A stretch of 64,000 nt of DNA from a virus. Taxonomy: Duplodnaviria > Heunggongvirae > Uroviricota > Caudoviricetes. The notes below the pieces were generated by a model. That model searched no databases, was not told where the DNA came from, and was given only the letters and a program-made list of their open reading frames with translations. The stretch is taken from the IMG/VR virus record IMGVR_UViG_3300017992_000015, positions 21,367 to 85,366 of that record; one strand, given 5' to 3'. Of this stretch, positions 15,978 to 42,340 are shown piece by piece. Made by a program: the position numbers and the translations under genes. Numbering within the stretch: position 1 is the stretch's first letter; each line of letters starts with the position of its first letter.

Positions 15978-16151
15978 ATGTTGGTCCTGTCCCGCAAAGA
16001 AGGTGAGCAGATCAAGATTGGCGACGACATCACCGTCACGGTCATCCGCACTGGTCGTGATCGGATCCGCCTCGGTGTCGACGCCCCGCCGGATGTACAA
16101 ATCCTGCGAGAGGAGCTCACCTCTGCTGAAGCGCCTGCCGAATCTCGGTAA
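15978..16151 (+). CDS. csrA: Carbon storage regulator CsrA/RsmA homologue (57 aa) - missed by ORF track (<60 aa)
   Basis: MLVLSRKEGEQIKIGDDITVTVIRTGRDRIRLGVDAPPDVQILREEL matches CsrA family (MLILTRKVGESI.IGDDI.ITVL....QVRIGI.AP.DV.V.REEI); AAGGAGG SD 6 nt upstream of ATG; lone plus-strand gene among minus genes. Confidence 0.8.
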   Translation: MLVLSRKEGEQIKIGDDITVTVIRTGRDRIRLGVDAPPDVQILREELTSAEAPAESR

Positions 16152-16422: not shown

Positions 16423-17857
16423 CTTCTTCCCGCAGTTGGGTACTACTGACGTCGACCTCTAGCTCGGCCAACCGCAGCTCGCCGCCCCATTCAGGCAGCA
16501 CCGCAGCTTCCGGTAGCAGGTCTTCCCTATCCTTGTAGTCCGGCCCTTTTACCATGATATCGGGCTGCAACGCCTGATACTCTGGTACTGCGTTATCGCC
16601 GTCGAACAGCAGCACCGCATCCACCAACGGATGCGCCGCCAGGCTGAGCGAACGGGCTATCTGACTGTGTTGCGGTCGGCGCTTGATGCGCTCCGCCGAT
16701 TCGTCAGTGTTCACGAGCACCGCCAGGAAGTCACAATGCTCCCTGGCCTGCCGTAGCAGCGAGGTGTGCCCGTCGTGGACGCCGTCGAACACGCCGTTGG
16801 CAACCCCGAAGATTTCGCCGGCGACGGCGACGGATTGCCGCAGGAGACGCAGCTCGTCGAGGGTCACGACCTTTCGATCGAGCCCGAGCGACAGCGTCAC
16901 GCGTTGGTTGAGGCGGTGCAGCGGGATGGGCATAGCACCAATGATCTCGCAGCATAGCGAACCGGACACGTTTGCAAAGCGCGTAGCCGTGCGTGCGTTC
17001 ATTCCGGTGGCAATCCCGTAGGTCATCGCCGACGCCACAGCATCTCCGCAACCGCACGTATCGATCGCAGCGGCGGGCAGCGCTTGCAGCGGGAACCGTT
17101 CCTGCCCGTGGGGCGGAACCAGCACCATTCCGTGGCTGCCGAGCGTGACGAGGACGTCACAATCGAACTTGTTGGCCAGGAAGTCAGCTGCTTCGACCGG
17201 ATCGGTTGCGCGATCTGCATACCCGCAGGCCGCTGCCATCCGCATTGCCTCGTCGGCGTTCGGCGTGAGTAGCGTAGCGCCCTGATAGCTCTCTGTGTGC
17301 GCCGGATCAGGGTCCACGATCACGGGGACGTTGTGATCCTCGCCGTAGAGCAGCACGGACCCGATGATGTCGGGCGTGCACACCCCCTTGTTGTAGTCGC
17401 TGATAAGTATCGCCAAAGGCGGCTTCTCTGCCACAGCGCTAAAAAATAAGGACGCAGTCGTAGACTCGAACGACCCTGTGTAAGGATCGTCCGCGTCAAA
17501 CCGTGCTACAAGGCGATTGTTGGCATAGACGCGGGTTTTTACGGGGGTGCTGTAGTTAGCGTATTTGCCAACCTTCAGCTGCAGGTTGGGAGGCATCGGT
17601 GCCTTGAGATACTCTTCGCCGGCGTCGTCGTCTCCGACCATGCCGACGAACGTCGTTGGGAGGGCCAGATGGGCCAAGCAGTTTGCGGCATTGCCGCCGC
17701 CACCGGGCGCCCAGAACTGTCCCGTGACGCCGATTAGAGGCACCGGCGCCGTACGGTCAAGTCGTCTGGGTTTGCCCACGAAGTAGCGATCGACAATGAC
17801 GGGACCAATGACGACGACGTAATCGTCAGAGGCCAGCTCTTCCGTCGAATTTGTCAT
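16346..17857 (-). CDS. hldE: HldE/RfaE-like bifunctional D-glycero-beta-D-manno-heptose-7-phosphate kinase / heptose-1-phosphate adenylyltransferase
   Basis: N-terminal pfkB kinase domain (VVVIGPVIVDRYFVG..APVP...PGGGGNAANCLAHLA, GCGDAVASA) and C-terminal cytidylyltransferase-fold domain (NGVFDGVHDGHTSLL...LAVLVNTD) colinear with E. coli HldE. Confidence 0.75.
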   Translation of the reverse strand: MTNSTEELASDDYVVVIGPVIVDRYFVGKPRRLDRTAPVPLIGVTGQFWAPGGGGNAANCLAHLALPTTFVGMVGDDDAGEEYLKAPMPPNLQLKVGKYANYSTPVKTRVYANNRLVARFDADDPYTGSFESTTASLFFSAVAEKPPLAILISDYNKGVCTPDIIGSVLLYGEDHNVPVIVDPDPAHTESYQGATLLTPNADEAMRMAAACGYADRATDPVEAADFLANKFDCDVLVTLGSHGMVLVPPHGQERFPLQALPAAAIDTCGCGDAVASAMTYGIATGMNARTATRFANVSGSLCCEIIGAMPIPLHRLNQRVTLSLGLDRKVVTLDELRLLRQSVAVAGEIFGVANGVFDGVHDGHTSLLRQAREHCDFLAVLVNTDESAERIKRRPQHSQIARSLSLAAHPLVDAVLLFDGDNAVPEYQALQPDIMVKGPDYKDREDLLPEAAVLPEWGGELRLAELEVDVSSTQLREEDEALKESTAPGETEDSAGGAGDAAD

Positions 17858-24336: not shown

Positions 24337-24765
24337 TCAGTTTGCCCTCACTTCAGGTAGTAGTAATCGGTTTGCCCACTGATCATCCAGGATACGCATC
24401 CAGGGAGCGAGCAGTATGTTAGAAGGACTGTGCTTCTTCTTCCGAAGCTTCCCTTTTACATCAACCTCGCAGATCACAAGGTCATCGATGTTTCGGAACC
24501 GGTTCGAGAAGCGCAGTATGTCCTCGTAGGTGGGCATGACGTGGAATCCCGACGTGTAGTGCGTCGCTTTCCGTTTGTCACCGTCCCACGCAATCTTCTC
24601 TTCCGCCCTGTACCAAAGGTCGAGGTGCAGAAGCCGGCTTCCCCGTACGCCGTGGAACAGCGTTGCAGGGAGTCCGTCGCGGTCGCGCAGCATTCGCCAG
24701 GCCCTAGTCGCCGACATCTCCAGGGAACCCCGGGAAGAATATCTCGATTTCGACTTTGGCCGCAC
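24337..24765 (-). CDS. Hypothetical protein (142 aa)
   Basis: 0-nt junction with upstream gene. Confidence 0.45.
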   Translation of the reverse strand: MRPKSKSRYSSRGSLEMSATRAWRMLRDRDGLPATLFHGVRGSRLLHLDLWYRAEEKIAWDGDKRKATHYTSGFHVMPTYEDILRFSNRFRNIDDLVICEVDVKGKLRKKKHSPSNILLAPWMRILDDQWANRLLLPEVRAN

Positions 24766-25129
24766 TTGGCGAGTCGCTGGCGTGTATCAGGTTCTTTTCG
24801 CGGACAGCGCCGAAGTCACCACGGATGGTGCCTGCAGCGGGTGCCGTGAAGCTGCCAACAGCAGACCGTACGATCGTGATCGTGTCGTCGGGCGCGTGCG
24901 GCGCGTGCGCCACACGGGCCTCGATCGGGCCGCTGGTCATAAATTCTTGGATGCGAGGCAGGTAGGGCTCGCCCTTGAATTTTGCGTACAACTCCTCGCA
25001 GTGGCGGGGGAGCATGATCAACTCTTTCACCCGCAGGAAGCGGATGCCCCGATCCTCGAGCCTGGTGAGGACGCGCCCCACCAGGCCCCGTTTGAGCGTA
25101 TCGGGTTTAAGCAGTACCAGCGTCTCCAT
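24704..25129 (-). CDS. ndk: Nucleoside diphosphate kinase
   Basis: EFMTSGPI identical to E. coli Ndk; active-site NLIHASDS (NIIHGSDS consensus); LLKPD...RGLVG N-terminal motif. Confidence 0.8.
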   Translation of the reverse strand: METLVLLKPDTLKRGLVGRVLTRLEDRGIRFLRVKELIMLPRHCEELYAKFKGEPYLPRIQEFMTSGPIEARVAHAPHAPDDTITIVRSAVGSFTAPAAGTIRGDFGAVREKNLIHASDSPSAAKVEIEIFFPGFPGDVGD

Positions 25130-25877
25130 CGATTTGCTCTTTCAAGACGTGATTGTGGATGATATTTTCGGCTTTGATGATCAACTGCCGAACACGTTCG
25201 CGGGTGATTCCGTAAACTTTACCGATCTCCCAAAGCTTGTCGCCGAGATAGCGACGCCGCAGTATGTCGACTTCACGCTCCGTCAACTTCTCGAACGCCT
25301 CGTAGACCATATCGGCTTGGTCCTCGCTCTCGACGTCGGCAACGAAGTCGCGCAGCGTCTCGTCTTCAATCATCTCGTACACGAATATCCCGGGATTTCG
25401 CCTATTGCCCGTGCCCACGCGTTTATGCAACGACACGTAGTCTGCAAACAGCTCCGGACAGTCTTTAGTCCAGTCCGGCCGCTTGACACCCTTTTCGTCC
25501 CAGCGGGGCGGGTAGTATACGAGGCGCCTATGGCACTTTTTGTACCATGAGATTGCGGCATGGATCGAGAACCAAGCAGCGGTTACGAATCGGTTGCCCG
25601 TTTCTGGTCGCCAGCGCTCGACTGCCTTCATGAGGCCGATCACGGCCTCCTGGAAGAGATCGTCGACGGAGAAGTGGGGATCGTTGTACGCTGCGCGCCA
25701 GGCCTGTTGAAAGGCCAGCCTGTAGCAACCAGCAATCCCGCGGTTCCGCGCGTCGTCGTCCCCTGCCTTACCCCTCTTAATGAGGGCCTCCATCTCCTCG
25801 ACTTCCATCAGTTTGCCGTGTCGCTGCAGTAAGGCTGTCGCCCAGTCCTGCTGCGCATGCGCACATTTTGTTTCCAT
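25107..25877 (-). CDS. Sigma-70 family RNA polymerase sigma factor (regions 2 and 4; start uncertain, Met25 used)
   Basis: Region 2 DLFQEAVIGLMKAVERW...FVTAAWFSIHAAI; region 4 HTH ITRERVRQLIIKAENII. Confidence 0.7.
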   Translation of the reverse strand: METKCAHAQQDWATALLQRHGKLMEVEEMEALIKRGKAGDDDARNRGIAGCYRLAFQQAWRAAYNDPHFSVDDLFQEAVIGLMKAVERWRPETGNRFVTAAWFSIHAAISWYKKCHRRLVYYPPRWDEKGVKRPDWTKDCPELFADYVSLHKRVGTGNRRNPGIFVYEMIEDETLRDFVADVESEDQADMVYEAFEKLTEREVDILRRRYLGDKLWEIGKVYGITRERVRQLIIKAENIIHNHVLKEQIDGDAGTA

Positions 25878-25927: not shown

Positions 25928-26800
25928 ATGAAACTATCACGACGGGCATTCATAGCGGCGTCAGCCGGCAGCGTACTGGCGGGACCAATGTACGCTGCCG
26001 GCGACGATCGCTCCAATGAGGCTGCCCGTGAACCGCTGTGGACCTACGCGCCGGTTGTCAGAGCGGTAGACGACACACGGTTGGGGCAGGTATTGGCGGA
26101 CATTGATTCGCGGCTGCCCGCAACGGGCCTGACAAGCTCCGCGACTTACCGTGACTCAGATCTGGGCACGTGGGCGCATGAAGCGACCCATGGTGTGAAC
26201 TCGCTCATGAGGAACGAGCATGGTGCCGGCACGGGTGTGGAAAACGCACTCTATTGTTTGAACGGCAGGACCGCGCTCATCGAAGAGCCGCGGCCCTGCA
26301 CTATCAGGGATGCTGCCCGGTATGTCCCAACCGGACTCAGATCGCGAATGTACGCGCAGTACATGATCGGCAGAACTCGCCAATGGAATCAGATCCCCCT
26401 CTACATCCTAGACGAGTGGGTCGCTTACCTGAACGGCGCGACGCATAACGTGTGGATGGCGAAGAATGGTGGTTCCATCGGCGACGGTGCTGGCGACCTG
26501 CTTTTCACAGCAGAGTCAGCAATCAACGCACTGGCGATTGTCTGTCATGTACAACAAGAGATTCAGGCGGGCCGCGTGTCCTACAACGACACCCAGCTGC
26601 GCCATGCCTTCGCGTTCAATTGGTCCAGGATGATGACACTATTTGCCGAGGCAAAACCCGTCAGTCAGCTCTTTATGGACCCGATAGCGTACTATCGGAA
26701 GTTCTCAGAGGGCCGTGACGGTGACGCACTGCGACGGTGGTGTCGCACACACCTGGGAGCAGCCTGGTCTTCAGAAGTTATGTGGCTTGTGGCCACATGA
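25928..26800 (+). CDS. Putative Tat-secreted protein (start at Met21 MKLSRRAFIAAS)
   Basis: Twin-arginine motif SRRAFIA + hydrophobic stretch + AAG cleavage-like site; 290-aa plus-strand ORF divergent from sigma factor gene. Confidence 0.45.
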   Translation: MKLSRRAFIAASAGSVLAGPMYAAGDDRSNEAAREPLWTYAPVVRAVDDTRLGQVLADIDSRLPATGLTSSATYRDSDLGTWAHEATHGVNSLMRNEHGAGTGVENALYCLNGRTALIEEPRPCTIRDAARYVPTGLRSRMYAQYMIGRTRQWNQIPLYILDEWVAYLNGATHNVWMAKNGGSIGDGAGDLLFTAESAINALAIVCHVQQEIQAGRVSYNDTQLRHAFAFNWSRMMTLFAEAKPVSQLFMDPIAYYRKFSEGRDGDALRRWCRTHLGAAWSSEVMWLVAT

Positions 26801-29132: not shown

Positions 29133-29151
29133 GGTAGCTCTCCTTGGGGGT

Positions 29152-29166
29152 GCTTGCATTGCAAGC
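29152..29166. promoter_or_regulatory. Perfect 7-1-7 palindrome GCTTGCATTGCAAGC in divergent promoter region; operator candidate
   Basis: 20 nt upstream of leftward gene start and 30 nt upstream of -35 of rightward promoter. Confidence 0.4.
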
Positions 29167-29195
29167 AAAATTGTCAGATTTTTTCAGGTAAGACA

Positions 29196-29225
29196 CTTGA
29201 CACACGATCGACAGATCTGGTAGAC
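29196..29225 (+). promoter_or_regulatory. Strong sigma70-like promoter (-35 TTGACA, 18-nt spacer, -10 TAGACT) for rightward early operon
   Basis: TTGACAcacgatcgacagatctggTAGACT about 50 nt upstream of ATG at ~29278; GAGGA SD follows. Confidence 0.55.
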
Positions 29226-29277
29226 TCACATGATATCGCAAGTCGTAACAGATGCATCTTCAACACGAGGACAATCA

Positions 29278-30390
29278 ATGGCTAGCTCGAAGACGGCTGA
29301 AGCACGCGAAAAGCTTGCGCAGCTGCAAACCCTCGCTGACATGAGCGAGGACGAGAAGATCCGCGAAATCCGCAAACTCGAACGGAAGCTCGCTTCTGCC
29401 AACGCGGCCAAAAAGGACGCGGAGAAGAAGTACAAGCAGGCCGAGGCGGACTTGCAGGTCTCCGAGGACAACTGCGAAAGGCTCCTGGCCTCGCAGGACC
29501 AGGCGACGCTCCGAAAGCTGGAGCGGAGTCGTAAACGCAAGGGACGCGGCAAAGCGTCCGCCATCATCTGTGTCAACGATTGGCACCTTGAAGAGGTCGT
29601 CGACCCGAAAATGGTTAACGGGGTCAACGAGTTCAACGAGCGTGTTGCTAATCGGCGCATTGCTACTACCTGGCAAAAGTCGCTCTACCTTCTCGACTTC
29701 GCTCGCTCGATTGCGAATATCAACGAAGTCGTCTTATGGGCCGGCGGTGACATGATCACTGGTTACATCCATGAAGAGCTCATGGAGGGCAACCGTAAGG
29801 GCCCGGCCGAAGCCTCGATCGAAGTGCAAAACCACCTGATCCAGGGTATCGACCTCCTTAAGCGGGAATCCAAAGCTGACCACGTGTTGTTCACGACCAG
29901 CTTGGGCAATCACGGGCGCTCCACCAAGGATCGCCGCATCGCCACTGAGCCCCGCAGTTCTTGGGAGTGGTTGATCTACAACAACGTCGCCAATTTCTTC
30001 CGCGACGACGACAAGGTCCAGTGCAAACTGGAGCCTGGGTATCACAACATTTTGCCCGTTCAAGGGCACACTGTTCGATTCCACCACGGCCACGCCATCA
30101 AGTACGGCGGCGGGATCGGTGGTGTCCACGTGCCTCTGCGCCGGAAGATCGCGCAGTGGAACGAGCCGCCGGCGACGCCCGCTGAGCTCGACGTGATGGG
30201 GCACTTCCACCAGTACGGCTGTGACTGGAACTATGTCCTGTGTGGCTGCCTGATCGGCATCAGTCCGTACGCCAAACGCGGCGGATTCAAAGCCCAGCCG
30301 CCCACGCAGACGTTCATAGTTATAGACTACGAACACGGCATGACGATGTCCATGCCAATTTTCTGTGATGACAAGCCCACGAAGAGCTGA
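29278..30390 (+). CDS. Calcineurin-like metallophosphoesterase with N-terminal coiled coil
   Basis: Motifs ICVNDWHLEE (D-x-H), WAGGDMITG (GD), SLGNHG (GNH), FHHGH, MGHFH; start MASSKTAEAREKLAQ. Confidence 0.7.
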   Translation: MASSKTAEAREKLAQLQTLADMSEDEKIREIRKLERKLASANAAKKDAEKKYKQAEADLQVSEDNCERLLASQDQATLRKLERSRKRKGRGKASAIICVNDWHLEEVVDPKMVNGVNEFNERVANRRIATTWQKSLYLLDFARSIANINEVVLWAGGDMITGYIHEELMEGNRKGPAEASIEVQNHLIQGIDLLKRESKADHVLFTTSLGNHGRSTKDRRIATEPRSSWEWLIYNNVANFFRDDDKVQCKLEPGYHNILPVQGHTVRFHHGHAIKYGGGIGGVHVPLRRKIAQWNEPPATPAELDVMGHFHQYGCDWNYVLCGCLIGISPYAKRGGFKAQPPTQTFIVIDYEHGMTMSMPIFCDDKPTKS

Positions 30391-30959
30391 TGCGTTTCGA
30401 CGAAGTCTACCTAGATGTTGACGATGTCCTCGCGGACTTCCTACCGGCAGTGCTGCGCCTTCACGGGCGTTCAGACCTGATCGGCACGCTTGAGACGCAC
30501 GACGTGGCGGTACTCGGCAAGACCGACTCGGAGATCTGGACACCGATCGTGGATCAGAAGCACTACTTCTGGGACGAACTCGAGGTACTACCGTGGGCGG
30601 TAGAGTTGTTTCATTTCTGCCGCCAGATCGGGCCAGTGACGTTCCTGACCCGGAATATCTGCAAACCAGAGTTCGGCGGTGCTGACTCTGGCTATGCCGT
30701 GCGAGGCAAGCTCACATGGCTACGACGCGTCTACGGCCAGGAGATCGACGACAGCGACGTGATCTTCACCGGACGCAAGGAGAGCGTGGCCCGCCCTGGT
30801 GCCCTGCTCATCGATGACTCCGAGGGCTACGAACCCAAGTTCCGGGAGCGTGGCGGTCGGCAGATCGTCTTCCCTAAAAGCTGGAATCGGTTCCGTCTAC
30901 GTCGAGACGACCCGATGGACTGTGTGATTGAACAATACGAAGGACTGCTCGAAGAATGA
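30390..30959 (+). CDS. HAD-superfamily 5'(3')-deoxyribonucleotidase-like phosphatase
   Basis: Motif I YLDVDDVLADF (DxDxV...ADF as in NT5C family); ATGA overlap with upstream gene. Confidence 0.6.
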   Translation: MRFDEVYLDVDDVLADFLPAVLRLHGRSDLIGTLETHDVAVLGKTDSEIWTPIVDQKHYFWDELEVLPWAVELFHFCRQIGPVTFLTRNICKPEFGGADSGYAVRGKLTWLRRVYGQEIDDSDVIFTGRKESVARPGALLIDDSEGYEPKFRERGGRQIVFPKSWNRFRLRRDDPMDCVIEQYEGLLEE

Positions 30960-31273
30960 TGACCATTGAGAATCCTGCGCTCTCGCAGGACGTGATCGAC
31001 GCTATCAACAGCGAACTTGAGTACCAAAACTCATTCGCTGATACCGACCGCAGCGACGGCCTGGACCACGGTGTCGTGGGACAGCTTACTACGTTGCGGG
31101 TCTACATGCGCAAGGCCGAGGAGGCCTGGGTGCACGGTGCCGACGAAGAGAAGACGTTGCGGGCGCTGCGTAAGGTTGCAGCGATCGCCTGCCGCGCCAT
31201 GCTGCTCTACGGCGCCCATCCGCGGACGTTTCGTATCGATGCCACTGGGAAGAAGGTTTACAACGACTCATGA
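30956..31273 (+). CDS. Hypothetical all-alpha protein, possibly MazG-like NTP pyrophosphohydrolase
   Basis: Acidic helical motifs ELEYQ...EEAWVHGADEEK; overlaps neighbours by 4 nt on each side. Confidence 0.35.
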   Translation: MMTIENPALSQDVIDAINSELEYQNSFADTDRSDGLDHGVVGQLTTLRVYMRKAEEAWVHGADEEKTLRALRKVAAIACRAMLLYGAHPRTFRIDATGKKVYNDS

Positions 31274-31761
31274 AAATCGCCATTTGTGGGCCAGGGCGCT
31301 GCGGCAAAGACACCGCCATGCAATGGCTCACCGAGAACACGATTCTGACAGATGCTGGCAGTACTAGCGAAGCTGCCGCACCCATGATTTTTGAGCGATT
31401 CGGCAAGACCCTGGGGTACAAAACCGTCCGGGAATGCTGGGAAGATCGCCATAATCACCGGGTACGGTGGGCAAACGCGATCTGGGAGTACAATCAGCCC
31501 TTTGGGATCACGCTGTACGAGGATATGCTGAAGGACAGCGATATTCTCAACGGAATCCGACGGGCGGGAGAACTGCAAGCATTGCTAGAACGGGACATGC
31601 TTGACCTGATCGTCTGGGTCAGCCGTGCCGTCCCCAACGATCCGTCGCTCGAGATGGATCTAGACGTTGCAGACATCGTCATCCCGAACTACGGGACGCT
31701 CGACGAGTTCTACGGGAAATTGGAAAGACTCTCGAAGTCTCTTGGCATACGGAACGGGTAA
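31270..31761 (+). CDS. P-loop nucleotide kinase (putative deoxynucleoside monophosphate kinase)
   Basis: Walker A ICGPGRCGKDT at N-terminus; 163 aa. Confidence 0.55.
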   Translation: MKIAICGPGRCGKDTAMQWLTENTILTDAGSTSEAAAPMIFERFGKTLGYKTVRECWEDRHNHRVRWANAIWEYNQPFGITLYEDMLKDSDILNGIRRAGELQALLERDMLDLIVWVSRAVPNDPSLEMDLDVADIVIPNYGTLDEFYGKLERLSKSLGIRNG

Positions 31762-31762
31762 T

Positions 31763-32341
31763 ATGGACATCGGTCTTGGATGGCTGAGCGACCTCCTGCG
31801 TTGGGCATCTCGGATCTTCCCTCGTGGGCTCCACGTCGACAGGACCCAGATGGGAGTCATGTTCACGCTCGGCAGAGTGAAGGCCATTGGCCCTGGCTTT
31901 CATCTCTACTGGCCACCCATCCAACGACCGGTGGTCCATCCCGTTATCCGTGACACGATCAATCTTGAAGCTCAAACACTGCCGCATGATACCAAAGAAG
32001 CTATCGGACTGACAATATCAGTGACAGTGGTTTTCACAATCGACGACATCGTCAAGGCGCTGGCCCACACGTACGACTTCAACGTCACGATCCGTGATCG
32101 CGCACAAGAGGGCGTCGTCGAATCCGTTATCGGTAAAGACGTCGAGACGTTGATCCGGAAGTTCCGGAGCATCAACAACTCGCTCACCAAAAAGATCCGC
32201 GAGGATTTAGAACCGTTTGGCGTCAACGTGGAGCGCGCATTCATGTCCGACTTCCACCTGACGAACATGCACCGGGTGATCGGTTCAACTGCCGTCATGC
32301 CGTTGCACGAGTATCCTGCTGAAGAACAAGAGGAAGAATAG
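31763..32341 (+). CDS. SPFH/band-7 (stomatin/prohibitin-like) domain protein
   Basis: GPGFHLYWPPIQRPV..V..R...LEAQTL.T.D...I.ISVTVVF.I.D matches SPFH core; start MDIGLGW 1 nt after upstream stop. Confidence 0.5.
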   Translation: MDIGLGWLSDLLRWASRIFPRGLHVDRTQMGVMFTLGRVKAIGPGFHLYWPPIQRPVVHPVIRDTINLEAQTLPHDTKEAIGLTISVTVVFTIDDIVKALAHTYDFNVTIRDRAQEGVVESVIGKDVETLIRKFRSINNSLTKKIREDLEPFGVNVERAFMSDFHLTNMHRVIGSTAVMPLHEYPAEEQEEE

Positions 32342-32343
32342 TC

Positions 32344-32601
32344 ATGGCCAAAGCCACCAAGAAAAACAACAAGGACGCCCTCGCCGCTCTCGCTGCGAAA
32401 CCGCGTCTGGTCACCCCGCGCGTCCTCCAAGGCGAGGAACGCGAGCTGTGGGAAGAGTTCGTCAAGAACTGGTCCGACGGCAAATACCAAGGTCTCTCGA
32501 TGAAGGACCTGTTCGATTGGGCGAAGGAGCATCTCAGCTTCAACTGCTCGATCAGCTGCTTCCGCGGCGAGCTTCTCAAAGCCGCCGGCGTGGAGGAGTA
32601 G
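32344..32601 (+). CDS. Hypothetical protein (85 aa) beginning MAKATKK
   Basis: Last gene of rightward operon; followed by nested hairpins. Confidence 0.45.
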   Translation: MAKATKKNNKDALAALAAKPRLVTPRVLQGEERELWEEFVKNWSDGKYQGLSMKDLFDWAKEHLSFNCSISCFRGELLKAAGVEE

Positions 32602-32610
32602 TTAAAACAA

Positions 32611-32699
32611 CAGGCGGCACGACGAGCAGGATAAAACCCTGTAAACAGGGCCCAAAAGGAACCCGCCGCACCGCCTGTTCGCTCTCCCTTGGCTTTTCG
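32611..32699. terminator. Putative bidirectional terminator between convergent operons (nested stems CAGGCGG/CCGCCTG and CCCTG/CAGGG, then T-rich CTTGGCTTTTCG)
   Basis: Inverted repeats at 32611..32617 / 32671..32677 and 32637..32650. Confidence 0.35.
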
Positions 32700-32707: not shown

Positions 32708-33382
32708 TTACAGTAATCCTTTTGATTGGCCGTATGCCAGCGTCTTGGACGACATCTTGCTGTTCGTGCACACCCAGTTGTACATCCACGACCAGTCGTC
32801 GTCCCAATACGCGGCGAATTGTTCTTCTGTGATTTCCATCGATTCGTCCGTGCAGGCGTCAAGCATACGCAAAACCCGCTCGTAGTCCTCGGAGTGATCG
32901 GTAGGCGGCTCGAGGTCGAACCGTAGTCGGATGAGCTTGCCATCCTTCAGGCGATCAACAGCTTCACACAGCTGCGCCTTCGCCTTCTCGCAGTAGCCAT
33001 CTCTGGCTTCTTGGTAAAGGTCCTTGTGCCGCGCCAGGTTCGCCTGCAGTTTGGTCCGCAGCGCCTCGACGGTGACATTGATCTTGAATCCCAAGGTATC
33101 TCCTGTACTGAAATCAGCCCTCGCAAGCGCTCCGGTGTGGCCGATGACCCCGCCAAGCGTCTCGAAGGCGTAAAACTCGACTTTGTAACGCGGCCCCTGT
33201 ATGTACACATCCCGCGGGACGGTGCCAAAGGGGATCGAAATACCGGCAGGTGCCGGCACCCGGTACGATTCAATCCGGTGTGCCGGCACGCCGTTACCAA
33301 ATAGTCGCCGAGGGTCGATGTTACGACTTTTCCCGACGTTACTTACTGGCGGATTCTTGCTGCTCGACCGATATGAGGTCAT
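32708..33382 (-). CDS. Hypothetical protein (start uncertain; Met9 used)
   Basis: Track ORF 32708..33406 overlaps ligA stop; well-formed C-terminal 200 aa. Confidence 0.4.
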   Translation of the reverse strand: MTSYRSSSKNPPVSNVGKSRNIDPRRLFGNGVPAHRIESYRVPAPAGISIPFGTVPRDVYIQGPRYKVEFYAFETLGGVIGHTGALARADFSTGDTLGFKINVTVEALRTKLQANLARHKDLYQEARDGYCEKAKAQLCEAVDRLKDGKLIRLRFDLEPPTDHSEDYERVLRMLDACTDESMEITEEQFAAYWDDDWSWMYNWVCTNSKMSSKTLAYGQSKGLL

Positions 33383-35462
33383 TGAACTCCGCTTCGTTGA
33401 CGACACGAACGCCCAGGTCCTGGGCCTTCTTCAGTTTGCTGCCGGCTTTTTCGCCGGCGACGAGCATGTCGGTCTTCGCCGAGACCGCGCTGGCGACTGT
33501 ACCGCCGTGTTGCACGATCGTCTCCTTGATGCTTTCGCGAGAGTACCCGACCAGTTTCCCGGTCGCACAGATCTTCATACCGGCGAGCGGCTTCGGAGAT
33601 CCGTCGTCTACTTCGGGCACCGGGTCGTTGACGCCCATGTTGACGCCGTAGTCCCGGAGGCGCTTCAGCAGCTTCAGGTTTTTCTCGCTGTGCATCCACG
33701 TCCAGATCGATCGAGCGGCGGCTTCGCCAACCCCCTCAATCTGGGTATAGTCGTCGATCGACCACAAGGACACCATCACTTGGAAGGGGTCGGCGGGTTC
33801 CTTCAGCTCGGCGCCAGCAGCGCTAGCAGCCTTGCAGATGGCCTCCGACATGGTCCTTCCGACGTGCTTGATGTTCAAAGACGCCAATAATCGCCAGGAA
33901 GGCCGCTCACGCGCCGTTGCGAGGGCTTCGAAGAGCTTGTCGGCTTTCTTCTCGCCCATGCGTGCAAGCCTCAGAACGCTGTCTCTGCGATGCTCAAGCG
34001 TGAAGAGGTCCGAGAGGTCCTCAACCAGCTCTGCCTCCGCCAATTGGGTGGCTAGGGTCTCCCCCAAACCATCTATATCTAGGCGGGACCGGTCAGCGGC
34101 CGATCGGAGCAGGGCGGCGATCTGTGCGGGGCACGAATCACCTGAGCAGCGCAGGAACGGACCATCCTCGATGGCGTCGCTGCCGCAGGACGGGCAGGTA
34201 GCGGGCGGCAGGAACGGCGCGACCGGTCCGGTGCGCTTCTCCTTGACCACACGTACGACGTGCGGAATGATCTTGCCGGCCTTTTCCATGACGATCGAGT
34301 CACCGTGGGCGATGCCCAGGCGCAAGACTTCGTGCCAGTTGTGCAGCGACGCCTTGCCGACCATCGTCTCAGCGATCTCCACCGGTTTGCAGTAAACCAC
34401 CGGCGTCAGCGTGCCCTGCTTGCCTACCTGTACGTCGAAGCGCTCGACCTCGGTTACGGCCTCGTACTTCTCCCACTTGTAGGCCAGCGCCCAGCTCACG
34501 TGCTTCTTGGACTCTTGGCCCATGGCTTCACGATCGCTGAACTTGTCCAGCTTCAGGACGATCCCGTCGACCGGAATGCTCAGTTCTGGCAGCATGGCAA
34601 CCATCTCTGCGACGGTCTTCAGCGCCTTATCCATCGGGGCGGGCAGGCCATAGTGATCTGTGATCGGCATCCCGCAAAGATGAAAGGCAAACAGCGTCTC
34701 GAAGTACGACTCGATATCGACGTCGCCTTCGTACTCACACTTGCCGATGCCGTGCGCCATAAAACGTACACGCCGCTCGTGACAGTCGGCCGGATCGACG
34801 CTACGGATAGCGCCGGACGTGGCGTTGCGGGAGTTGGCGAACGTCTCCTCACCAGCGTTGTTGCGCGCACAGTTGACCTGCGTGAAGTCATCGTGCGTGA
34901 TGAACGCTTCGCCACGGATCTCCAAGAGCTTCGGCAACGGCTTGGGATTCCCCATCACATTGCCTTCCTCGTCGTAGAGACGGTCCAGCTTGAGAGGGAC
35001 GCCGCGCATTGCCTTGGCAGCGTGCGTGATGTCGTCGCCGACTGCACCGTCGCCGCGGGTTATGGCATGGGTGAGTACGCCGTCCTCATAGATCAGATTG
35101 ACAGCGCAACCGTCAATCTTCCATTCGGGCGTCCAGAGCGGCTCGTGGCCGAGCTTCTTCACCACACGCTGATGAAACTTCTTGACCTCATCGAGGTCGA
35201 AGCAGTTGTCGATAGAAAACATGAGCGACGGGTGCTCCATGGACTCGAGGCCCTCAACAGGAGCGCCGCCCACACGTTGGGTCGGGCTATCTGGCAGCGC
35301 CAGATCCGGGAATTCCTGCTCTAGTGCAACCAGTTCCTTGAGGAGCTCGTCGAACACCCTATCCGGGATCGCTGGTTCACCATAGCAATAGTACAACATG
35401 TTGTGCCGATCCACGTCCGCTGACAGTTCAGCGATTCTGGCGGCAGCCGCTTTCTTGTTCAT
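33339..35462 (-). CDS. ligA: NAD+-dependent DNA ligase (LigA) with C-terminal BRCT domain
   Basis: Adenylation motif KIDGCAV, OB/Zn/HhH regions, BRCT ICATGKL...VNEAEF; AGGAGG SD 6 nt upstream of ATG at 35462. Confidence 0.85.
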   Translation of the reverse strand: MNKKAAAARIAELSADVDRHNMLYYCYGEPAIPDRVFDELLKELVALEQEFPDLALPDSPTQRVGGAPVEGLESMEHPSLMFSIDNCFDLDEVKKFHQRVVKKLGHEPLWTPEWKIDGCAVNLIYEDGVLTHAITRGDGAVGDDITHAAKAMRGVPLKLDRLYDEEGNVMGNPKPLPKLLEIRGEAFITHDDFTQVNCARNNAGEETFANSRNATSGAIRSVDPADCHERRVRFMAHGIGKCEYEGDVDIESYFETLFAFHLCGMPITDHYGLPAPMDKALKTVAEMVAMLPELSIPVDGIVLKLDKFSDREAMGQESKKHVSWALAYKWEKYEAVTEVERFDVQVGKQGTLTPVVYCKPVEIAETMVGKASLHNWHEVLRLGIAHGDSIVMEKAGKIIPHVVRVVKEKRTGPVAPFLPPATCPSCGSDAIEDGPFLRCSGDSCPAQIAALLRSAADRSRLDIDGLGETLATQLAEAELVEDLSDLFTLEHRRDSVLRLARMGEKKADKLFEALATARERPSWRLLASLNIKHVGRTMSEAICKAASAAGAELKEPADPFQVMVSLWSIDDYTQIEGVGEAAARSIWTWMHSEKNLKLLKRLRDYGVNMGVNDPVPEVDDGSPKPLAGMKICATGKLVGYSRESIKETIVQHGGTVASAVSAKTDMLVAGEKAGSKLKKAQDLGVRVVNEAEFNDLISVEQQESASK

Positions 35463-36037: not shown

Positions 36038-36266
36038 GACGCTCCTCCTTATATTCTTCGAAAAGCGCCTCGATCAGCGCCATGAACCGTTTAACAGGGG
36101 CGCCGGAGAAGTTGAGGAGATCCGGGCGGTTGAACATGATCCACCGGATAGCGGCTGTCCGCTTCTTGGCGTGCATGTTCGTGTCCCAGTACTCCTCCAC
36201 CTTCTCGGCCCCGTGTGAGATGCGGAGGTCAAGGGCTACCTGGATGTCCCAAGGTAGCCCGTTCAT
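36018..36266 (-). CDS. Small hypothetical protein (82 aa; C-terminal part of track ORF 36018..36950)
   Basis: ATGA overlap with upstream 648-aa gene; remainder of track ORF is an Arg-rich shadow frame. Confidence 0.4.
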   Translation of the reverse strand: MNGLPWDIQVALDLRISHGAEKVEEYWDTNMHAKKRTAAIRWIMFNRPDLLNFSGAPVKRFMALIEALFEEYKEERHVKEGA

Positions 36267-38083
36267 TCCTCTGCCTCTCGCGAAGTGGGCGCCAAATCCG
36301 GGTGTGACATGACACCCAGGTCGTCCCAGTTCTGTGCGTAGATTTGCTGCTCTTCGGCCGCATCGACAGTCGCCAACTCCTTGCTGGTCAGGCGACGACG
36401 CACGCTGCGCGCATTGGCGGGCAGCCGCATCATGCAGTTCCAGCAGAAGACGCCCATGAAGTGCTGTTGCACGAGATTGTGGTACGCCTCGTAGAAGTCC
36501 TTCTTGTGCATATGCGCGTCCTGCGTCGCATCTGTGTGCAGATACTCGTGCAGGAGCAGCGTAGCGTAGCGCCACCAGCTGGAAGGCCCGACCTTGACAG
36601 CAGCAATCACCCGGCGGTTGATCGCAATGAACGTACGGCCGTCGGTCCACGAATCGAACGGACCGATGCCGACCACAATGCGCCGCTGCGCGTTGCGGTT
36701 CTGCTGGACATTGACACGGCAGGCTGCCCAGTGGATGTTGCTGATATTGGCGCTCATAGTCGCCGTGGCGATGCGTTCGAGGCGTGTCATCTTGTTCGCG
36801 TCGATGACCGTGTTCGATCCTTGCATCGTCTTCACGATCTTGTCCGCATCGACGTACTTCAGCCGGACGTCGTTTGCGTACTTGCCGAACTGCTCGTCGA
36901 ACGTGGCGTTGATGTTCTCGACTAGCTTTTCCGGGAACTCCGGTTTCCATCCCCAGCGGTTGAACATGACGGGATCGAGCACGACCGCCAGGCGGTGATC
37001 CGCCAGCGATTTGGGTAGGCTCGAGTACGCCGGTGTCTCGTCTGGGAGGAACGTGACGTTCCCCTTGGCGATCTTGTATACGGCGGAGATCGTCGAGTGC
37101 GTTTCCTTACGCCACATCGTGAAGACCTTGGCGGCCTTCATCTGGCGCTTGTTCAACGACCCGTCTTTCATCTCGCGCACGACGCGGCAGCGGTCCTGCT
37201 CGGTCAGCGTCGGACGCCGCCGATTGGTTGCCCGGGCACGTGTGCGCGTCGGGGTATTCCGTTGCCGGCCGGCCGTTTCTTGCTGGGCCAACGTCCGTGC
37301 GTTGACGTGGTCGCGCACGGTCTTTCTGATCGCCTGCCACGTCTCACAGCTGTCCATGACGTCGTTTCGGGCGAAGTTCACGTCCAGCTGCTTTTTGGAC
37401 ACGATGTCGCCGCCGGTGCCGTACCGGTAGCGCGGGTAAGAGCAGACACGGATGCCCTGGTTGAACAGCTCCAGGTTCCCGTTGTCACGCCACTTGAAGT
37501 CCGCCTCGGCCGTCGAGAGGTCCCAGGCGATCTTGTCGGGCTTCTTGTTGAACTGCTTCTCGTCGCCATTCAGATGGAACGGGATCTGGACGAACTTGAT
37601 GTTCTTCTTGATCTCGTCGAGGATCTCGTTGTGCTGGACATGCGACAGCGGCCGATAAAGCTCCACTGTCACGATGCAGCCGTTGTGATACTCGAGGCCA
37701 GATCGTAGCTCATAATCCAGGCCGTTCTCCTCAATATCGACGATCATCTCGAACTCGCCGGACCGCCAGACGTTACGCCCGAAGGCGAACAGCTGGCCGC
37801 GGCCCATGCGGTACTGTCCAAAGACTTTCTGCTCTCTTTCTTCGTGCGGTTTGCCGAAGACTTCGAAGAAGTTCTCAATGTCCGCCTTGGACCGGAACCC
37901 CTTTCCGTTATCGCGAATCTGCACCATCTGTGGCGTGCAATCGATCTCGCACTTGCGGGCGGCAGCGTCGATGACGTTCTGCCCGCCTTCCACAACGGCT
38001 TTCCACAGGCTGCCTGCCTGCTTCTTGATCACGCTGACCAGCAAACTCTGGTCCATCTTGAAACTACGTGTCTCCGTCGGCAT
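36263..38083 (-). CDS. GHKL-family (HATPase_c) ATPase domain protein with C-terminal HExxH motif
   Basis: N-box/G1 motifs LVSVIKKQAGSLWKAVVEGGQNVIDAA...IRDNGKGF; C-terminal LLLHEYLHTD; start Met43 (GAGG SD) or Met52. Confidence 0.55.
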   Translation of the reverse strand: MPTETRSFKMDQSLLVSVIKKQAGSLWKAVVEGGQNVIDAAARKCEIDCTPQMVQIRDNGKGFRSKADIENFFEVFGKPHEEREQKVFGQYRMGRGQLFAFGRNVWRSGEFEMIVDIEENGLDYELRSGLEYHNGCIVTVELYRPLSHVQHNEILDEIKKNIKFVQIPFHLNGDEKQFNKKPDKIAWDLSTAEADFKWRDNGNLELFNQGIRVCSYPRYRYGTGGDIVSKKQLDVNFARNDVMDSCETWQAIRKTVRDHVNARTLAQQETAGRQRNTPTRTRARATNRRRPTLTEQDRCRVVREMKDGSLNKRQMKAAKVFTMWRKETHSTISAVYKIAKGNVTFLPDETPAYSSLPKSLADHRLAVVLDPVMFNRWGWKPEFPEKLVENINATFDEQFGKYANDVRLKYVDADKIVKTMQGSNTVIDANKMTRLERIATATMSANISNIHWAACRVNVQQNRNAQRRIVVGIGPFDSWTDGRTFIAINRRVIAAVKVGPSSWWRYATLLLHEYLHTDATQDAHMHKKDFYEAYHNLVQQHFMGVFCWNCMMRLPANARSVRRRLTSKELATVDAAEEQQIYAQNWDDLGVMSHPDLAPTSREAEE

Positions 38084-40456: not shown

Positions 40457-42340
40457 ATGGATGTACCCTTTCAAGAACCTGAAGCACTGGCACGACTGCA
40501 GATGCGGATGAGGGCCGCATTCAGTCCCCAGAATATCGAGGAGTTGTCAGCTAACGAAAGAGTCAGGCTCTTCACGCAGCTGTTGCAGTCGGGCCGGTTG
40601 GACTCACTTGCCAACGGGCTCATGCTGCTCCTCAATCTCAAGGGTAAGCCGTACACCTTGGCGAACCACTTCCCCTTTGAAGAGATCTTCAGATTCCGTA
40701 TGCCGTCCGCCATAGTCTACAAGACGGGGCGGCAGGTGAGCAAGAGCACATCGCTCGCTGCCCACGGGGTAATCACATCCACCTCCATCCCGAACTTCAG
40801 CACACTCTACGTGATGCCGCTGTTCGAGCAGGTTCGGCGCTTCAGCACGATGTTCGTCCAGCCCTTCATCGACCAAAGTCCGGTGAAGTTCTTGTGGTCG
40901 GACACGACCACCGTGAACAGCGTGCTGCACCGCTCCTTCCGTAACGACTCCAAAATGCTCTTTTCGTTCGCATTCCTCAACGCTGACCGTGTCCGGGGTA
41001 TTTCCGCGGACAAAGTGGCCATCGACGAGGTCCAGGATATGAACCATGAACATATCCCGATCATCCGCGAAACGATGTCGGCATCCGACTGGGCGATCCG
41101 GCAGTTCACCGGCACGCCGAAGACGTTGGACAACACTCTAGAGGCCCTGTGGACCGAGTCCAGCCAGGCCGAGTGGTTTATTCCCTGTTTTCATTGTACC
41201 CAGAACGGCAAGCCGCGCTGGAACATACCGTCCATGGAGTTCCATCTCGAGAAGATGATCGGCGAGTATCACACCGACATCAGCGAGAAGTGCCCGGCGA
41301 CGATTTGTTATCATTGCGGCAAGCCGATTAGTCCCCGACTGGGGCGCTGGGTACACCGGCATCCCGACCGGGTATGGCTACAGGCGGGATACCATGTTCC
41401 ACAGGTGATCATGCCTTTGCACTATGCCAAGCCTGACAAGTGGGCTGAACTCCTCGCCAAGATGGCGGGCAAAGGCAACACGCCTGCGAACGTGTTTTGG
41501 AACGAGGTTCTCGGCGAGTCTTACGACACGGCCGCCAAACTCGTTACGCTGACTGAAATTGACCGGGTGTCTGACCTCGGGCCCAACACAGTTGCACGTG
41601 CCCGTGGTCGCTGCGGGCAATACAAATTTCGCGTGCTGGGCGTTGACTGGGGAGGGGGCGGTGAAAAGAAGATCAGCTTTACGACGATCGCTCTCCTTGG
41701 TGTGAAGCACGATGGCTCGATCGACGTACTGTGGGGCAAGCGGCTCCTTACACCCCACGACCACCTGCGCGAAGCCAAAGAGGTCAAACACTACTGGGAT
41801 ATCTTCAAGCCCGAGATTCTCGCACACGACTACACTGGTGCCGGCTCTCTGCGGGAGACGTTCCTGATTCAAGCGGGCATTCCGACTCGCAAAGTGATGC
41901 CCTGTCAGTACGTCCGCTCCGCTAACCAGCAGCCCTGCTACCACGTTGCTCCTACGATGCAGCATCCGCGTAGCCACTACCGTGTCGACAAGAGCCGAAC
42001 GCTCTTGCTGACGTGTGCGATGATCAAGTGCCAGAAGCTCCGTTTCTTCGACAAGGACTACAACTCCCAAGAGGATCCGGGCCTGATCCGGGACTTTCTG
42101 GCCTTGACCGAAGACAAAATCACCACGATGGCCGCCGGTGAGATCTACCGGATCACCCGGCAGGAAGGATTCACTGACGACTTCGCCCAGGCTGTCAATT
42201 TGGGCTGCGTGGCGGTGTGGTACCGCACCAAGCGGTGGCCACGACTCGACGAGCTCGCCTCCTACGCGATCACCGACGAACAACTGCGGGCATCGGTGCC
42301 GCTTACGGATGGTGAGTGGGATGACGAGCTGCTCGAGTAA
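40457..42340 (+). CDS. terL: Terminase large subunit (ATPase + RNase-H-like nuclease)
   Basis: Deviant Walker A YKTGRQVSKST, Walker B KVAIDEVQDM, C-terminal nuclease RVLGVDWGGGGEKK; 627 aa; isolated on plus strand after 410-bp non-coding region. Confidence 0.7.
   Translation: MDVPFQEPEALARLQMRMRAAFSPQNIEELSANERVRLFTQLLQSGRLDSLANGLMLLLNLKGKPYTLANHFPFEEIFRFRMPSAIVYKTGRQVSKSTSLAAHGVITSTSIPNFSTLYVMPLFEQVRRFSTMFVQPFIDQSPVKFLWSDTTTVNSVLHRSFRNDSKMLFSFAFLNADRVRGISADKVAIDEVQDMNHEHIPIIRETMSASDWAIRQFTGTPKTLDNTLEALWTESSQAEWFIPCFHCTQNGKPRWNIPSMEFHLEKMIGEYHTDISEKCPATICYHCGKPISPRLGRWVHRHPDRVWLQAGYHVPQVIMPLHYAKPDKWAELLAKMAGKGNTPANVFWNEVLGESYDTAAKLVTLTEIDRVSDLGPNTVARARGRCGQYKFRVLGVDWGGGGEKKISFTTIALLGVKHDGSIDVLWGKRLLTPHDHLREAKEVKHYWDIFKPEILAHDYTGAGSLRETFLIQAGIPTRKVMPCQYVRSANQQPCYHVAPTMQHPRSHYRVDKSRTLLLTCAMIKCQKLRFFDKDYNSQEDPGLIRDFLALTEDKITTMAAGEIYRITRQEGFTDDFAQAVNLGCVAVWYRTKRWPRLDELASYAITDEQLRASVPLTDGEWDDELLE

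Follow-up and report, generated by a model that had tools for sequence, protein, structure and literature searches.

Among the early gene products of phage T5 is a dNMP kinase. At the start of infection, strong sigma-70 promoters drive the pre-early dmp-A1-A2 genes of this phage; Dmp turns dNMPs into nucleosides, and A1, a predicted metallo-phosphatase encoded in a common operon with dmp, is alone sufficient for degradation of the host DNA, while the DNA of T5 itself is canonical (bioRxiv 10.64898/2026.04.02.716235). Another example is the dU-DNA phage PBS1, whose dTMP phosphatase Dtm belongs to the Pfam family PF06941 (PMC12697855). Additionally, modified dNMPs require cognate dNMP kinases in phages RB69 and DLP3 (PMC13326640).

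Here we describe an operon from an uncultured phage, the host of which is probably a member of the Planctomycetota, within a 64-kb stretch of DNA that was analysed as a whole (the window). As in T5, the gene of a predicted metallophosphatase shares its transcript with that of a 5'-dNMP phosphatase, a logic analogous to that of A1, Dmp and Dnk, although the proteins are not homologous: comparison of the profile of the metallophosphoesterase (MPE) with T5 A1 by hhalign detected no homology (probability 0.2%), and T5 Dmp does not match PF06941 and thus is not a member of the Pfam NT5C family. Unlike in T5, the kinase is encoded inside the operon, and T5 has no equivalents of the SPFH, 105-aa and 85-aa proteins described below. 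The likeness does not imply a T5-style two-step DNA injection for the phage studied here.

Architecture of the operon and its promoter region

The operon consists of six translationally coupled plus-strand genes at positions 29278-32601 (+) of the window. Neighbouring genes overlap by 1 nt at 30390 and by 4 nt at 30956-30959 and at 31270-31273, or are separated by 1-2 nt (at 31762 and at 32342-32343). The other plus-strand genes called in the window (15978-16151, 25928-26800, 40457-42340, 52424-52750 and 57219-58436) each stand alone and, in agreement with the original prediction, this is the only multi-gene block on that strand. Four of the five gene identities proposed earlier (MPE, NT5C, dNMP kinase and SPFH) hold, whereas that of a MazG-like protein does not, and the sixth gene, encoding 85 aa, had been omitted. 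The order MPE-NT5C-kinase-SPFH-85-aa gene is kept in three related viral contigs (L005, L006/L029 and L007).

Upstream of the operon lies a sigma-70-type promoter (29197..29226, +; TTGACA-18 nt-TAGACT) with a TGn extended -10, which matches the consensus at 10 of 12 positions and has counterparts at the same position in L007 (TTGACG-17-TAGTAT) and L006 (TTGTTG-17-TAGGAT). Five sites scoring at least 10/12 occur in the window, compared with about two in shuffled sequences, and transcription is predicted to start at about 29233. Thus, the near-consensus promoter claimed earlier is present and conserved, but its description as strong and early is inferred from a site whose -10 element matches at 4 of 6 positions and whose spacer is 18 nt. 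The best reading of this host-type promoter is that host RNA polymerase would drive the operon. The same divergent intergenic region contains an inverted repeat, GCTTGCA-T-TGCAAGC (29152..29166), located upstream of both the ATG of the leftward gene (29132), at a distance of 20 nt, and the rightward -35, at a distance of 31 nt, with a variant (GCTTGC-AAG-GCAAGC) at the equivalent place in L007. This palindrome is exact, as had been reported, but statistically ordinary when taken alone, being one of nine perfect 7+1+7 palindromes in the window (33 when spacers of 0-3 are allowed, versus 17 in shuffles); it is a possible operator. Past the operon, the convergent intergenic gap contains an inverted repeat, AACAGGCGG...CCGCCTGTT (32609..32679), which has no T-run and a fold z-score of only -1.7, and is a possible, weak candidate for a factor-dependent or bidirectional stop.

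The metallophosphoesterase and its relatives

The first gene encodes MPE (370 aa; 29278..30390, +). Its start is at 29278, preceded by the SD sequence GAGGA, and not at the ORF start 29230; transcription is predicted to begin downstream of the latter position. A helical, coiled-coil-like N-terminal extension of ~75 aa precedes a calcineurin-like core, in which all seven metal ligands (D101, H103, D158, N211, H270, H309 and H311) are invariant. The structure model (pLDDT 92.9) places the N-terminal helices at residues 2-21 and 24-72, confirming the proposed architecture of a calcineurin-like MPE with an N-terminal coiled coil. The protein belongs to phrog_284; at the sequence level, searches retrieved neither Pfam Metallophos nor NCBIfam SbcD/Mre11 nor any PDB chain, even when its profile was used. 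In structural comparison, its nearest neighbours are DNA exonucleases, with the PolD proofreading subunit DP1 as the best match, and nucleases outscore phosphodiesterases. Several homologs carry a fused N-terminal Fis-type HTH (PF02954), which argues for DNA as the substrate. Judging from the modelled fold, MPE is predicted to be a DP1/Mre11-like exonuclease that would act on DNA. It differs from DP1 and Mre11/SbcD in lacking an OB-fold or capping domain, having instead the N-terminal helical extension, and in having no Rad50/SbcC or DP2 partner encoded beside it.

These comparisons bear on a second activity proposed for MPE, the degradation of cyclic-nucleotide immune signals (anti-CBASS, anti-Pycsar or anti-Thoeris type), which would make the operon an early anti-defence cassette. 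Its location behind a host-type promoter fits early expression, but the ranking of nucleases above phosphodiesterases, the HTH DNA-binding fusions, the lack of any match in a PADLOC/anti-defence family search, and the replication and nucleotide-metabolism genes that are the consistent neighbours of MPE make such a role very improbable. Moreover, phage Acb1 has a 2H fold and Apyc1 an MBL fold, both unrelated to that of MPE.

The match to DP1 is also what would be expected if MPE were a proofreader or end-processing nuclease acting on the phage's own DNA, with NT5C, the kinase and the other proteins being generic auxiliaries on a shared transcript and not parts of a coordinated pool-remodelling pathway. 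In line with this possibility, viral structural neighbours of MPE carry the annotation 'DNA polymerase II small subunit', and in many loci the MPE gene directly follows primase-helicase, helicase or RusA genes, or precedes that of a PD-(D/E)XK nuclease. Additionally, a distant homolog of the dNMP kinase adjoins another MPE and RecT, and L063 retains the NT5C-kinase adjacency without MPE. However, the PolA of this phage already contains a 3'-5' exonuclease domain, and the phage encodes a separate SbcC/SbcD-like pair, so that MPE is not needed as an Mre11 partner; the absence of the DP1 OB-fold and the helical N-terminus likewise set MPE apart from a DP1-like proofreader. The neighbourhoods of 49 viral MPE loci add to these objections. 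NT5C lies within one to three genes of MPE in about 10 of them, a PF18909 dATP/dGTP diphosphohydrolase is immediately downstream in 8, and a ribonucleotide reductase is nearby in 9; the MPE-PF18909 pair is found in a Pirellulaceae prophage as well. That these adjacencies recur across unrelated lineages suggests that the genes are functionally connected, and we consider a role confined to replication or recombination unlikely, albeit a serious contender.

The dNMP phosphatase, the dNMP kinase and the co-encoded proteins

The second gene encodes an NT5C-family HAD 5'(3')-deoxyribonucleotidase, i.e., a dNMP phosphatase (189 aa; 30390..30959, +), which matches PF06941 above the gathering score (E 1.3e-6; 28.9 bits versus 24.8) and phrog_2643 (E 5e-15). 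NT5C is the only match for all eight family members (8/8), and the HAD motifs D9/D11 (DxD), K130 and D142/D143 (DD) are invariant. The protein shares its Pfam family and HAD catalytic motifs with PBS1 Dtm and with the human mdN/cdN 5'(3')-deoxyribonucleotidases. The P-loop protein (163 aa; 31270..31761, +) has a Walker A motif, GPGRCGKDT, and matches phrog_139 'dNMP kinase' (E 1.4e-7); its best PDB sequence match is the T4 dNMP kinase 1DEK (E 3.6e-4). It falls below the Pfam cut-off for PF21448 DNMK (15 bits versus 27.1), a family matched by 24 of 30 of its relatives (best E 1.9e-8). Aligned with the T4 gp1-type kinase, it shares the Walker A GxxxxGKDT and the C-terminal region R...VIW..R...D..IPN.GTLEEL, but is much shorter (163 versus 241 aa) and differs in the middle, substrate-binding region. 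Collectively, this evidence upholds the assignment of both enzymes, the latter as a divergent dNMP kinase.

The 105-aa protein (30956..31273, +) is helical and belongs to an unannotated family, with 6 homologs found by word search and 614 representatives by exhaustive HMMER; its AF2 model, of poor quality (pLDDT 58), has three helices. It has no relative in Pfam, PHROG or PDB, no kinship with a family of NTP pyrophosphatases could be detected, and the acidic motif set is absent, so the MazG-like identity proposed for it was rejected. In the MazZ/PF18909 clusters of distant phages and of the Pirellulaceae prophage, the MPE gene is followed directly by that of PF18909. The 105-aa protein, encoded at roughly the corresponding place, is unrelated to PF18909-like proteins (hhalign probability 1.3%), and the operon is thus without a recognisable dNTP pyrophosphatase. 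The SPFH/Band-7 protein (192 aa; 31763..32341, +) was correctly recognised (PF01145, E 2.5e-18) and has a weak HflK match; conservation of its N-terminus, MDIGLGWLSDLLRWASR, in L006/L007 fixes its start codon. The last gene encodes the 85-aa protein (32344..32601, +), which has no match in family searches (Pfam and PHROG among them) and has counterparts, 49-55% identical, at the equivalent site of L005, L006 and L007.

Possible nucleotide exclusion and proposed DNA recycling

The original prediction held that a triad of dNMP phosphatase, NTP pyrophosphatase and dNMP kinase is typical of phages that exclude a canonical nucleotide in favour of a modified one. On this reading, the operon would exclude, e.g., dTMP through NT5C and channel a modified dNMP through the dedicated kinase, possibly in connection with an HldE-like enzyme, a GT9 glycosyltransferase and a radical-SAM protein, so that virion DNA would be non-canonical. 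PBS1 Dtm is a true precedent for such exclusion (PMC12697855), and the need for cognate kinases in RB69 and DLP3 would fit the channelling of modified dNMPs (PMC13326640). The genome encodes an HldE-like kinase/nucleotidyltransferase and a radical-SAM enzyme, with a Glyco_transf_9 protein just right of the window, and the N-terminal UDG-like domain of PolA has a variant motif A, GKHPG. Two members of the triad do stand beside MPE in a conserved operon, and MPE recurs near nucleotide-metabolism genes in unrelated phages. The NTP-pyrophosphatase leg, however, is missing because the 105-aa protein is not MazG-like; the gene of this protein is also an accessory one, which two of the three related operons lack. 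Nor do precomputed Pfam tables for the window and ~20 kb flanks (~84 kb, the contigs reaching 117-220 kb) contain a replacement-nucleotide enzyme: they lack dCTP/dCMP deaminase (dCTP deaminase being the companion enzyme in dU-DNA phages), a thymidylate-synthase-like hydroxymethylase or homolog, PurZ, DatZ, dUTPase and DpdA. Furthermore, T5 has the same phosphatase-kinase-metallophosphatase set and canonical DNA, and the prophage with the MPE-PF18909 cluster is temperate. A modified-base genome is thus improbable.

The explanation that we prefer, tentatively and with a little less than even confidence, combines a DNA-to-dNMP nuclease with a dNMP kinase for salvage and a dNMP phosphatase for disposal or balancing. 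Specifically, the two-metal MPE, with a core similar to that of the 3'-5' exonucleases DP1, SbcD and Mre11, would break down DNA, either of the host or nicked, to 5'-dNMPs. The kinase would convert these into dNDPs, and an NDK of the phage, whose gene lies 4 kb upstream (24704-25129), would finish the route to dNTPs. NT5C may strip surplus or unwanted dNMPs, most likely of the dUMP/dTMP type, to nucleosides and thereby balance the pool, with the 105-aa, SPFH and 85-aa proteins as putative co-expressed accessories. Several points speak against recycling. About half of the viral MPE loci have no nucleotide-metabolism neighbours, and if the phosphatase and the kinase used the same dNMPs, without a difference in specificity, the outcome would be a futile cycle. 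Disposal of dNMPs would also be costly, since the ~84 kb inspected showed no ribonucleotide reductase. No finding here shows the phage DNA to be unusual, and the operon most likely manages DNA precursors with canonical bases.

Architecture and promoter of the operon

Six plus-strand genes follow one another between 29278 and 32601, with junctions that either overlap by 1-4 nt or leave gaps of 1-2 nt, the signature of a single translationally coupled transcript. They encode, in order, a 370-aa metallophosphoesterase (MPE; 29278-30390), a 189-aa HAD 5'(3')-deoxyribonucleotidase-like protein (NT5C; 30390-30959), a 105-aa protein (g105; 30956-31273), a 163-aa P-loop protein (31270-31761), an SPFH protein (31763-32341) and an 85-aa protein (g85; 32344-32601). 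The operon is flanked by a leftward gene starting at ATG 29132 and by a convergent leftward gene with its stop at 32708, and it is indeed, as originally described, the only multi-gene plus-strand block, since every further plus-strand gene of the window stands alone. Gene calls made independently on metagenomic contigs of identical sequence recover these six genes and place the start of the 370-aa MPE at the same position. The window sequence recurs in many assemblies, including a 61-kb JGI contig and ENA contigs of 117-220 kb, and holds no internal 30-mer repeat; as one JGI contig reaches 9 kb past its left edge, the phage genome must be at least 73 kb. A megablast search with the operon found no match among 50,697 phage records.

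Ahead of the operon, the sequence TTGACA-18-TAGACT (29197-29226) matches the consensus at 10/12 positions and carries a TG one base upstream of its -10 element. Five sites scoring at least 10/12 occur on the two strands of the window versus about two in shuffles, so this count is weak evidence by itself. Position and conservation argue better for a promoter: the site occupies the sole divergent intergenic region, just where the operon begins, and equivalents precede the orthologous MPE gene in two related viral contigs (TTGACG-17-TAGTAT in L007; TTGTTG-17-TAGGAT, with TGG, in L006). Of the proposed "strongly promoted early operon", the promoter thus stands through its conservation in two relatives, while its strength and early timing are inferred. 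Since transcription is expected to start only downstream of the ATG at 29230, position 29278, which has the SD GAGGA, is supported as the true start of the MPE. The palindrome reported next to the promoter is exact (GCTTGCA-T-TGCAAGC; 29152-29166) and, being one of nine 7+1+7 palindromes in the window, statistically unremarkable; a variant at the equivalent place in L007 (GCTTGC-AAG-GCAAGC) makes it a possible operator.

The divergent intergenic region showed no sigma-70-like promoter pointing leftward. The phage encodes a sigma factor of its own (Sigma70_r2/r4; 25107-25877, minus strand), whose gene is overlapped at its 3' end by that of a nucleoside diphosphate kinase (NDK; 24704-25129, minus strand), and a CsrA homolog (15978-16151, plus strand) on the strand opposite to both. 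Within the SPFH gene, an antisense promoter-like site (TTGTCA-18-TATCAT with TG, 10/12; 32015-31986, minus strand) is probably a chance match. Past the operon, a 9-bp inverted repeat (AACAGGCGG / CCGCCTGTT; 32609-32617 and 32671-32679) spans the convergent gap; it lacks a T-run, and its fold stability is not significantly above that of shuffles (z -1.7). Farther right, in the leftward block between an NAD-dependent ligase (33339-35462) and a terminase gene (40457-42340, plus strand), lies the gene of a 597-aa protein (36263-38056, minus strand) with a weak HATPase_c_3 match only and no PHROG match.

The metallophosphoesterase and its gene neighbourhoods

The MPE is recognised by neither Pfam nor NCBIfam, including their SbcD/Mre11 models, and matches the "exonuclease" family phrog_284 over its full length (E 7e-37). 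It has 560 homologs at E <= 1e-5, and its tblastn matches are all distant ones, from cyanophages and Bacteroides phages and at no more than 33% identity. A profile of 35 homologs found nothing among PDB sequences, which made structure prediction necessary. The AlphaFold model, built from a 68-homolog alignment (pLDDT 92.9), places two N-terminal helices (2-21 and 24-72) ahead of a phosphoesterase core, in agreement with the coiled coil and calcineurin-like domain originally predicted. The motifs DxH / GD / GNH(D/E) / H / GH / GxH are complete, supplying seven metal ligands, and D101-W-H103, G157-D158, G210-N211-H212, H270 and H309-F-H311 vary hardly or not at all across the 68 homologs; the protein combines this superfamily motif with what is modelled as the beta-sandwich phosphoesterase fold. 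The generic fold is all that speaks for the earlier suggestion that the MPE degrades cyclic-nucleotide immune signals as an anti-CBASS/Pycsar factor. This is very improbable, as the predicted fold is calcineurin-like, neither 2H nor metallo-beta-lactamase as in Acb1 and Apyc1, and PADLOC returned no match.

The numerous viral structural neighbours of the MPE are mostly named "DNA polymerase II small subunit" or metallophosphatase. Its predicted phosphodiesterase domain is similar to that of DP1, the small subunit of PolD, but no OB-fold precedes this domain in the MPE, whose two N-terminal helices include no beta-barrel. Nor is there a DP2 partner, the sole polymerase seen in the phage being of family A. 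Besides a 3'-5' exonuclease domain, the polymerase itself (928-4113, minus strand) carries a UDG-superfamily domain at its N-terminus (PF03167, E 1e-21); motif A of this second domain is GKHPG, where GEAPG/GQDPY types are usual, and its motif B is HPAA. The MPE also differs from Mre11/SbcD, both in giving no match to these families in Pfam, NCBIfam or, with the 35-sequence profile, the PDB, and in having no adjoining Rad50/SbcC ATPase. An SbcC-like ATPase (10878-13022, minus strand; phrog_77, E 1e-36; SMC_N/AAA_23) is encoded 16 kb off, and a few small genes separate it from a weak SbcD/PdeM/Mre11-like phosphoesterase (14296-15513, minus strand; phrog_100, E 2e-5; TIGR04123, E 1.5e-6). Since the phage has these two proteins of its own, the MPE is a distinct enzyme, giving the phage two separate metallophosphoesterase nuclease candidates. 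A role for the MPE as SbcD to the SbcC-like ATPase was considered and rejected, the other SbcD-like gene adjoining that ATPase.

In several MPE homologs the N-terminus bears a Fis-type HTH (PF02954), which replaces the helices or is added to them and argues for DNA as the substrate. Gene neighbourhoods were surveyed by scanning IMG/VR with the MPE, which gave 52 loci, and neighbours were counted at 49 of these. The full operon recurs in related contigs (L005, L006/L029 and L007; g105 is missing from two of the three sister operons) at 42-80% identity and with the same flanking genes. A more distant group (L012-L018, L026 and L056) encodes a helicase, a primase-helicase, RusA, the MPE, a PF18909 dATP/dGTP diphosphohydrolase, NT5C and a DNA methylase; in these loci the MPE is followed by the MazZ-like PF18909 protein, after which NT5C and an N6/N4 DNA methylase often come. 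In another group, ribonucleotide reductase (RNR) directly precedes the MPE and a PD-(D/E)XK nuclease follows it, with a dCMP deaminase close by. A Pirellulaceae MAG (GCA_040219575.1) has a prophage (L066, 9001-10527) with an MPE 54% identical to that of the operon, likewise followed by PF18909, suggesting Planctomycetota as hosts.

Across the 49 loci, NT5C lies near about 10, PF18909 near 8 and RNR near 9, and roughly half have none of the three. The recurring neighbours of the MPE are enzymes that synthesise, degrade or interconvert deoxynucleotides. These neighbours, together with the nuclease-like fold and the DNA-binding fusions, favour a DNA exonuclease. In the main rival explanation the MPE would likewise be an exonuclease, one acting in replication or recombination, whose co-transcription with nucleotide enzymes is incidental; this seems rather unlikely. 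The recurrence of the phrog_284 MPE with NT5C and PF18909 could also mark a widespread host-depletion cassette, leading from DNA and dNTP to nucleoside, that evolved independently of the T5 genes discussed below.

The companion genes and the case for modified DNA

The identification of the second gene product as an NT5C-like HAD 5'-deoxyribonucleotidase is borne out by homology. The protein exceeds the PF06941 gathering threshold (28.9 bits vs 24.8), also matches phrog_2643, and has HAD motifs I-IV (DxDxV, S/T, K, DD) with D9, D11, V13, K130, D142 and D143 invariant; among HAD families, each of the eight aligned relatives matches NT5C alone. A single-sequence PDB search gave one weak, family-consistent match (3bwv, "putative 5'(3')-deoxyribonucleotidase", E 0.02). 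The fourth gene product likewise keeps its label of P-loop dNMP-kinase-like protein, and is best read as a short, divergent dNMP kinase. It scores 15 bits against PF21448 (DNMK), under the cut-off of 27.1, and matches phrog_139 (E 1.4e-7); 24 of 30 close relatives match PF21448 (best E 1.9e-8). A single-sequence PDB search was uninformative, and the best PDB sequence for the family profile is T4 gp1 (1DEK, E 3.6e-4), in an alignment that spans the P-loop and the C-terminal region, the middle region being different. Substrate specificities of the two enzymes are not readable from sequence. In a related phage (L063, 4547-6489) the NT5C and kinase genes adjoin without MPE, SPFH or g85, co-oriented with homologs of the window's leftward genes, and a distant kinase homolog in another viral locus (L064, 176-1395) lies directly ahead of a different metallophosphoesterase (phrog_221) and RecT.

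The third gene product, g105, had been called a MazG-like all-alpha protein, and this call fails. Neither g105 nor 141 members of its family match the MazG, PRA-PH, MazG-like, dUTPase_2 or PF18909 profiles of Pfam, the same members match no NTP-pyrophosphatase family in PHROGs, and hhalign against the PF18909 dNTP diphosphohydrolases encoded after the MPE in other phages yields a probability of 1.3%. The acidic ExxE...ExxD set is absent: the conserved residues are E20, Y23, A54, R72, K73, G86 and R90, only one of them acidic, within a family signature E-x-x-Y-Q ... A ... R-K ... G-x-P-x-R. A word search found six homologs and exhaustive HMMER 614 representatives at 50% identity, some in tandem two-copy form or with long extensions, so that g105 defines a sizeable family without a Pfam or PHROG model. 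The AF2 model, from 6 sequences, has three helices and is too poor (pLDDT 58.5) to justify a fold search. A single-sequence PDB search yielded chance-level matches only, and the "significant" match of the family profile, a designed repeat protein, was judged spurious, with no genuine PDB relative. In one viral locus (L065) a homolog lies ahead of terminase and portal genes, a context that offers no functional clue. On these comparisons g105 is best regarded as an accessory protein.

The SPFH assignment is secure (PF01145, 67.2 bits vs a gathering threshold of 23.6, E 2.5e-18), with weak similarity to HflK. The sixth gene, g85, which the original list of five overlooked, has no named relatives; both it and the SPFH gene are kept in the sister operons, neither with an evident nucleotide role. 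The operon is therefore genuine and conserved and its genes were mostly called correctly, the exceptions being the MazG-like call and this missed gene.

The gene set had been read as the logic of phages that exclude a canonical nucleotide and install a modified one. In such an undescribed hypermodification pathway, NT5C would remove one canonical dNMP and the short kinase would serve the modified one. There is real precedent for both steps: the PBS1 dTMP phosphatase Dtm is a PF06941 enzyme (PMC12697855), as is the operon NT5C, and modified dNMPs require cognate kinases (PMC13326640). The base itself might then be decorated by the HldE-like, radical-SAM and GT9 enzymes, the last encoded just beyond the window. 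Against this, Dcd, TS-like hydroxymethylase, PurZ and other enzymes for a replacement nucleotide are absent from Pfam tables that cover the window and extend about 10 kb beyond it to left and right, and the presumed pyrophosphatase, g105, is not one. With the decorating candidates present and the genome seen in part, we regard both the nucleotide arm and the decoration step as improbable, though not negligible. The MazG-like call was a false lead, and by itself this set of genes is no predictor of modified DNA.

The HldE-like enzyme is a bifunctional PfkB kinase and cytidylyltransferase-like protein (16346-17857, minus strand), and the GT9 enzyme, encoded some 7-10 kb to the right of the window (L067, 1-383), is a Glyco_transf_9 (heptosyltransferase-family) protein of 656 aa; the pair suggests that the phage encodes the synthesis and transfer of NDP-heptose, with the host envelope, a virion protein or DNA as possible targets. 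NT5C as a GmhB-type sugar-phosphate phosphatase acting with the HldE-like enzyme was largely, if not fully, set aside: it matches NT5C only, with no GmhB or other HAD match, and NT5C accompanies the MPE also in phages without HldE. Next to the radical-SAM protein (296 aa; 45697-46587, minus strand) lie two others, one of 169 aa that faintly matches a TAT signal and one of 450 aa.

A T5-like reading of the operon

The reading we tentatively prefer, at somewhat under even odds, is that the MPE is a DNA exonuclease feeding dNMPs to the pool, with the kinase and NT5C managing their fate. The MPE would digest DNA and supply dNMPs, the dNMP kinase and NDK (24704-25129) would provide a path back to dNTPs, and NT5C would dispose of dNMPs or balance them. 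This logic resembles that of the pre-early dmp-A1-A2 operon of phage T5, whose DNA has canonical bases. There, A1, a predicted metallo-phosphatase, is enough alone for host DNA degradation, and Dmp, a dNMP phosphatase encoded in the same strongly promoted operon, improves virulence (bioRxiv 10.64898/2026.04.02.716235). As here, a metallophosphatase and a dNMP phosphatase are co-transcribed from a sigma-70 promoter. The analogy is architectural only: no homology of A1 to the MPE was detected (hhalign probability 0.2%), and Dmp, unlike the operon NT5C, has no PF06941 match, so that any likeness to T5 would be functional.

The operon is an ordinary kind of phage module, serving nucleotide economy or host takeover, with a member of an uncharacterised and widespread DP1-like MPE family at its centre. 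If the preferred reading is true, T5-style destruction of host DNA and control of dNMPs from one early transcript arose independently, and a different, DP1-like family that is common in uncultured phages is used for the same tactic. The most useful by-product of this study is the MPE-PF18909-NT5C synteny, which provides a concrete, testable hypothesis for the MPE family and would better annotate genes now named "exonuclease" or "DNA polymerase II small subunit".
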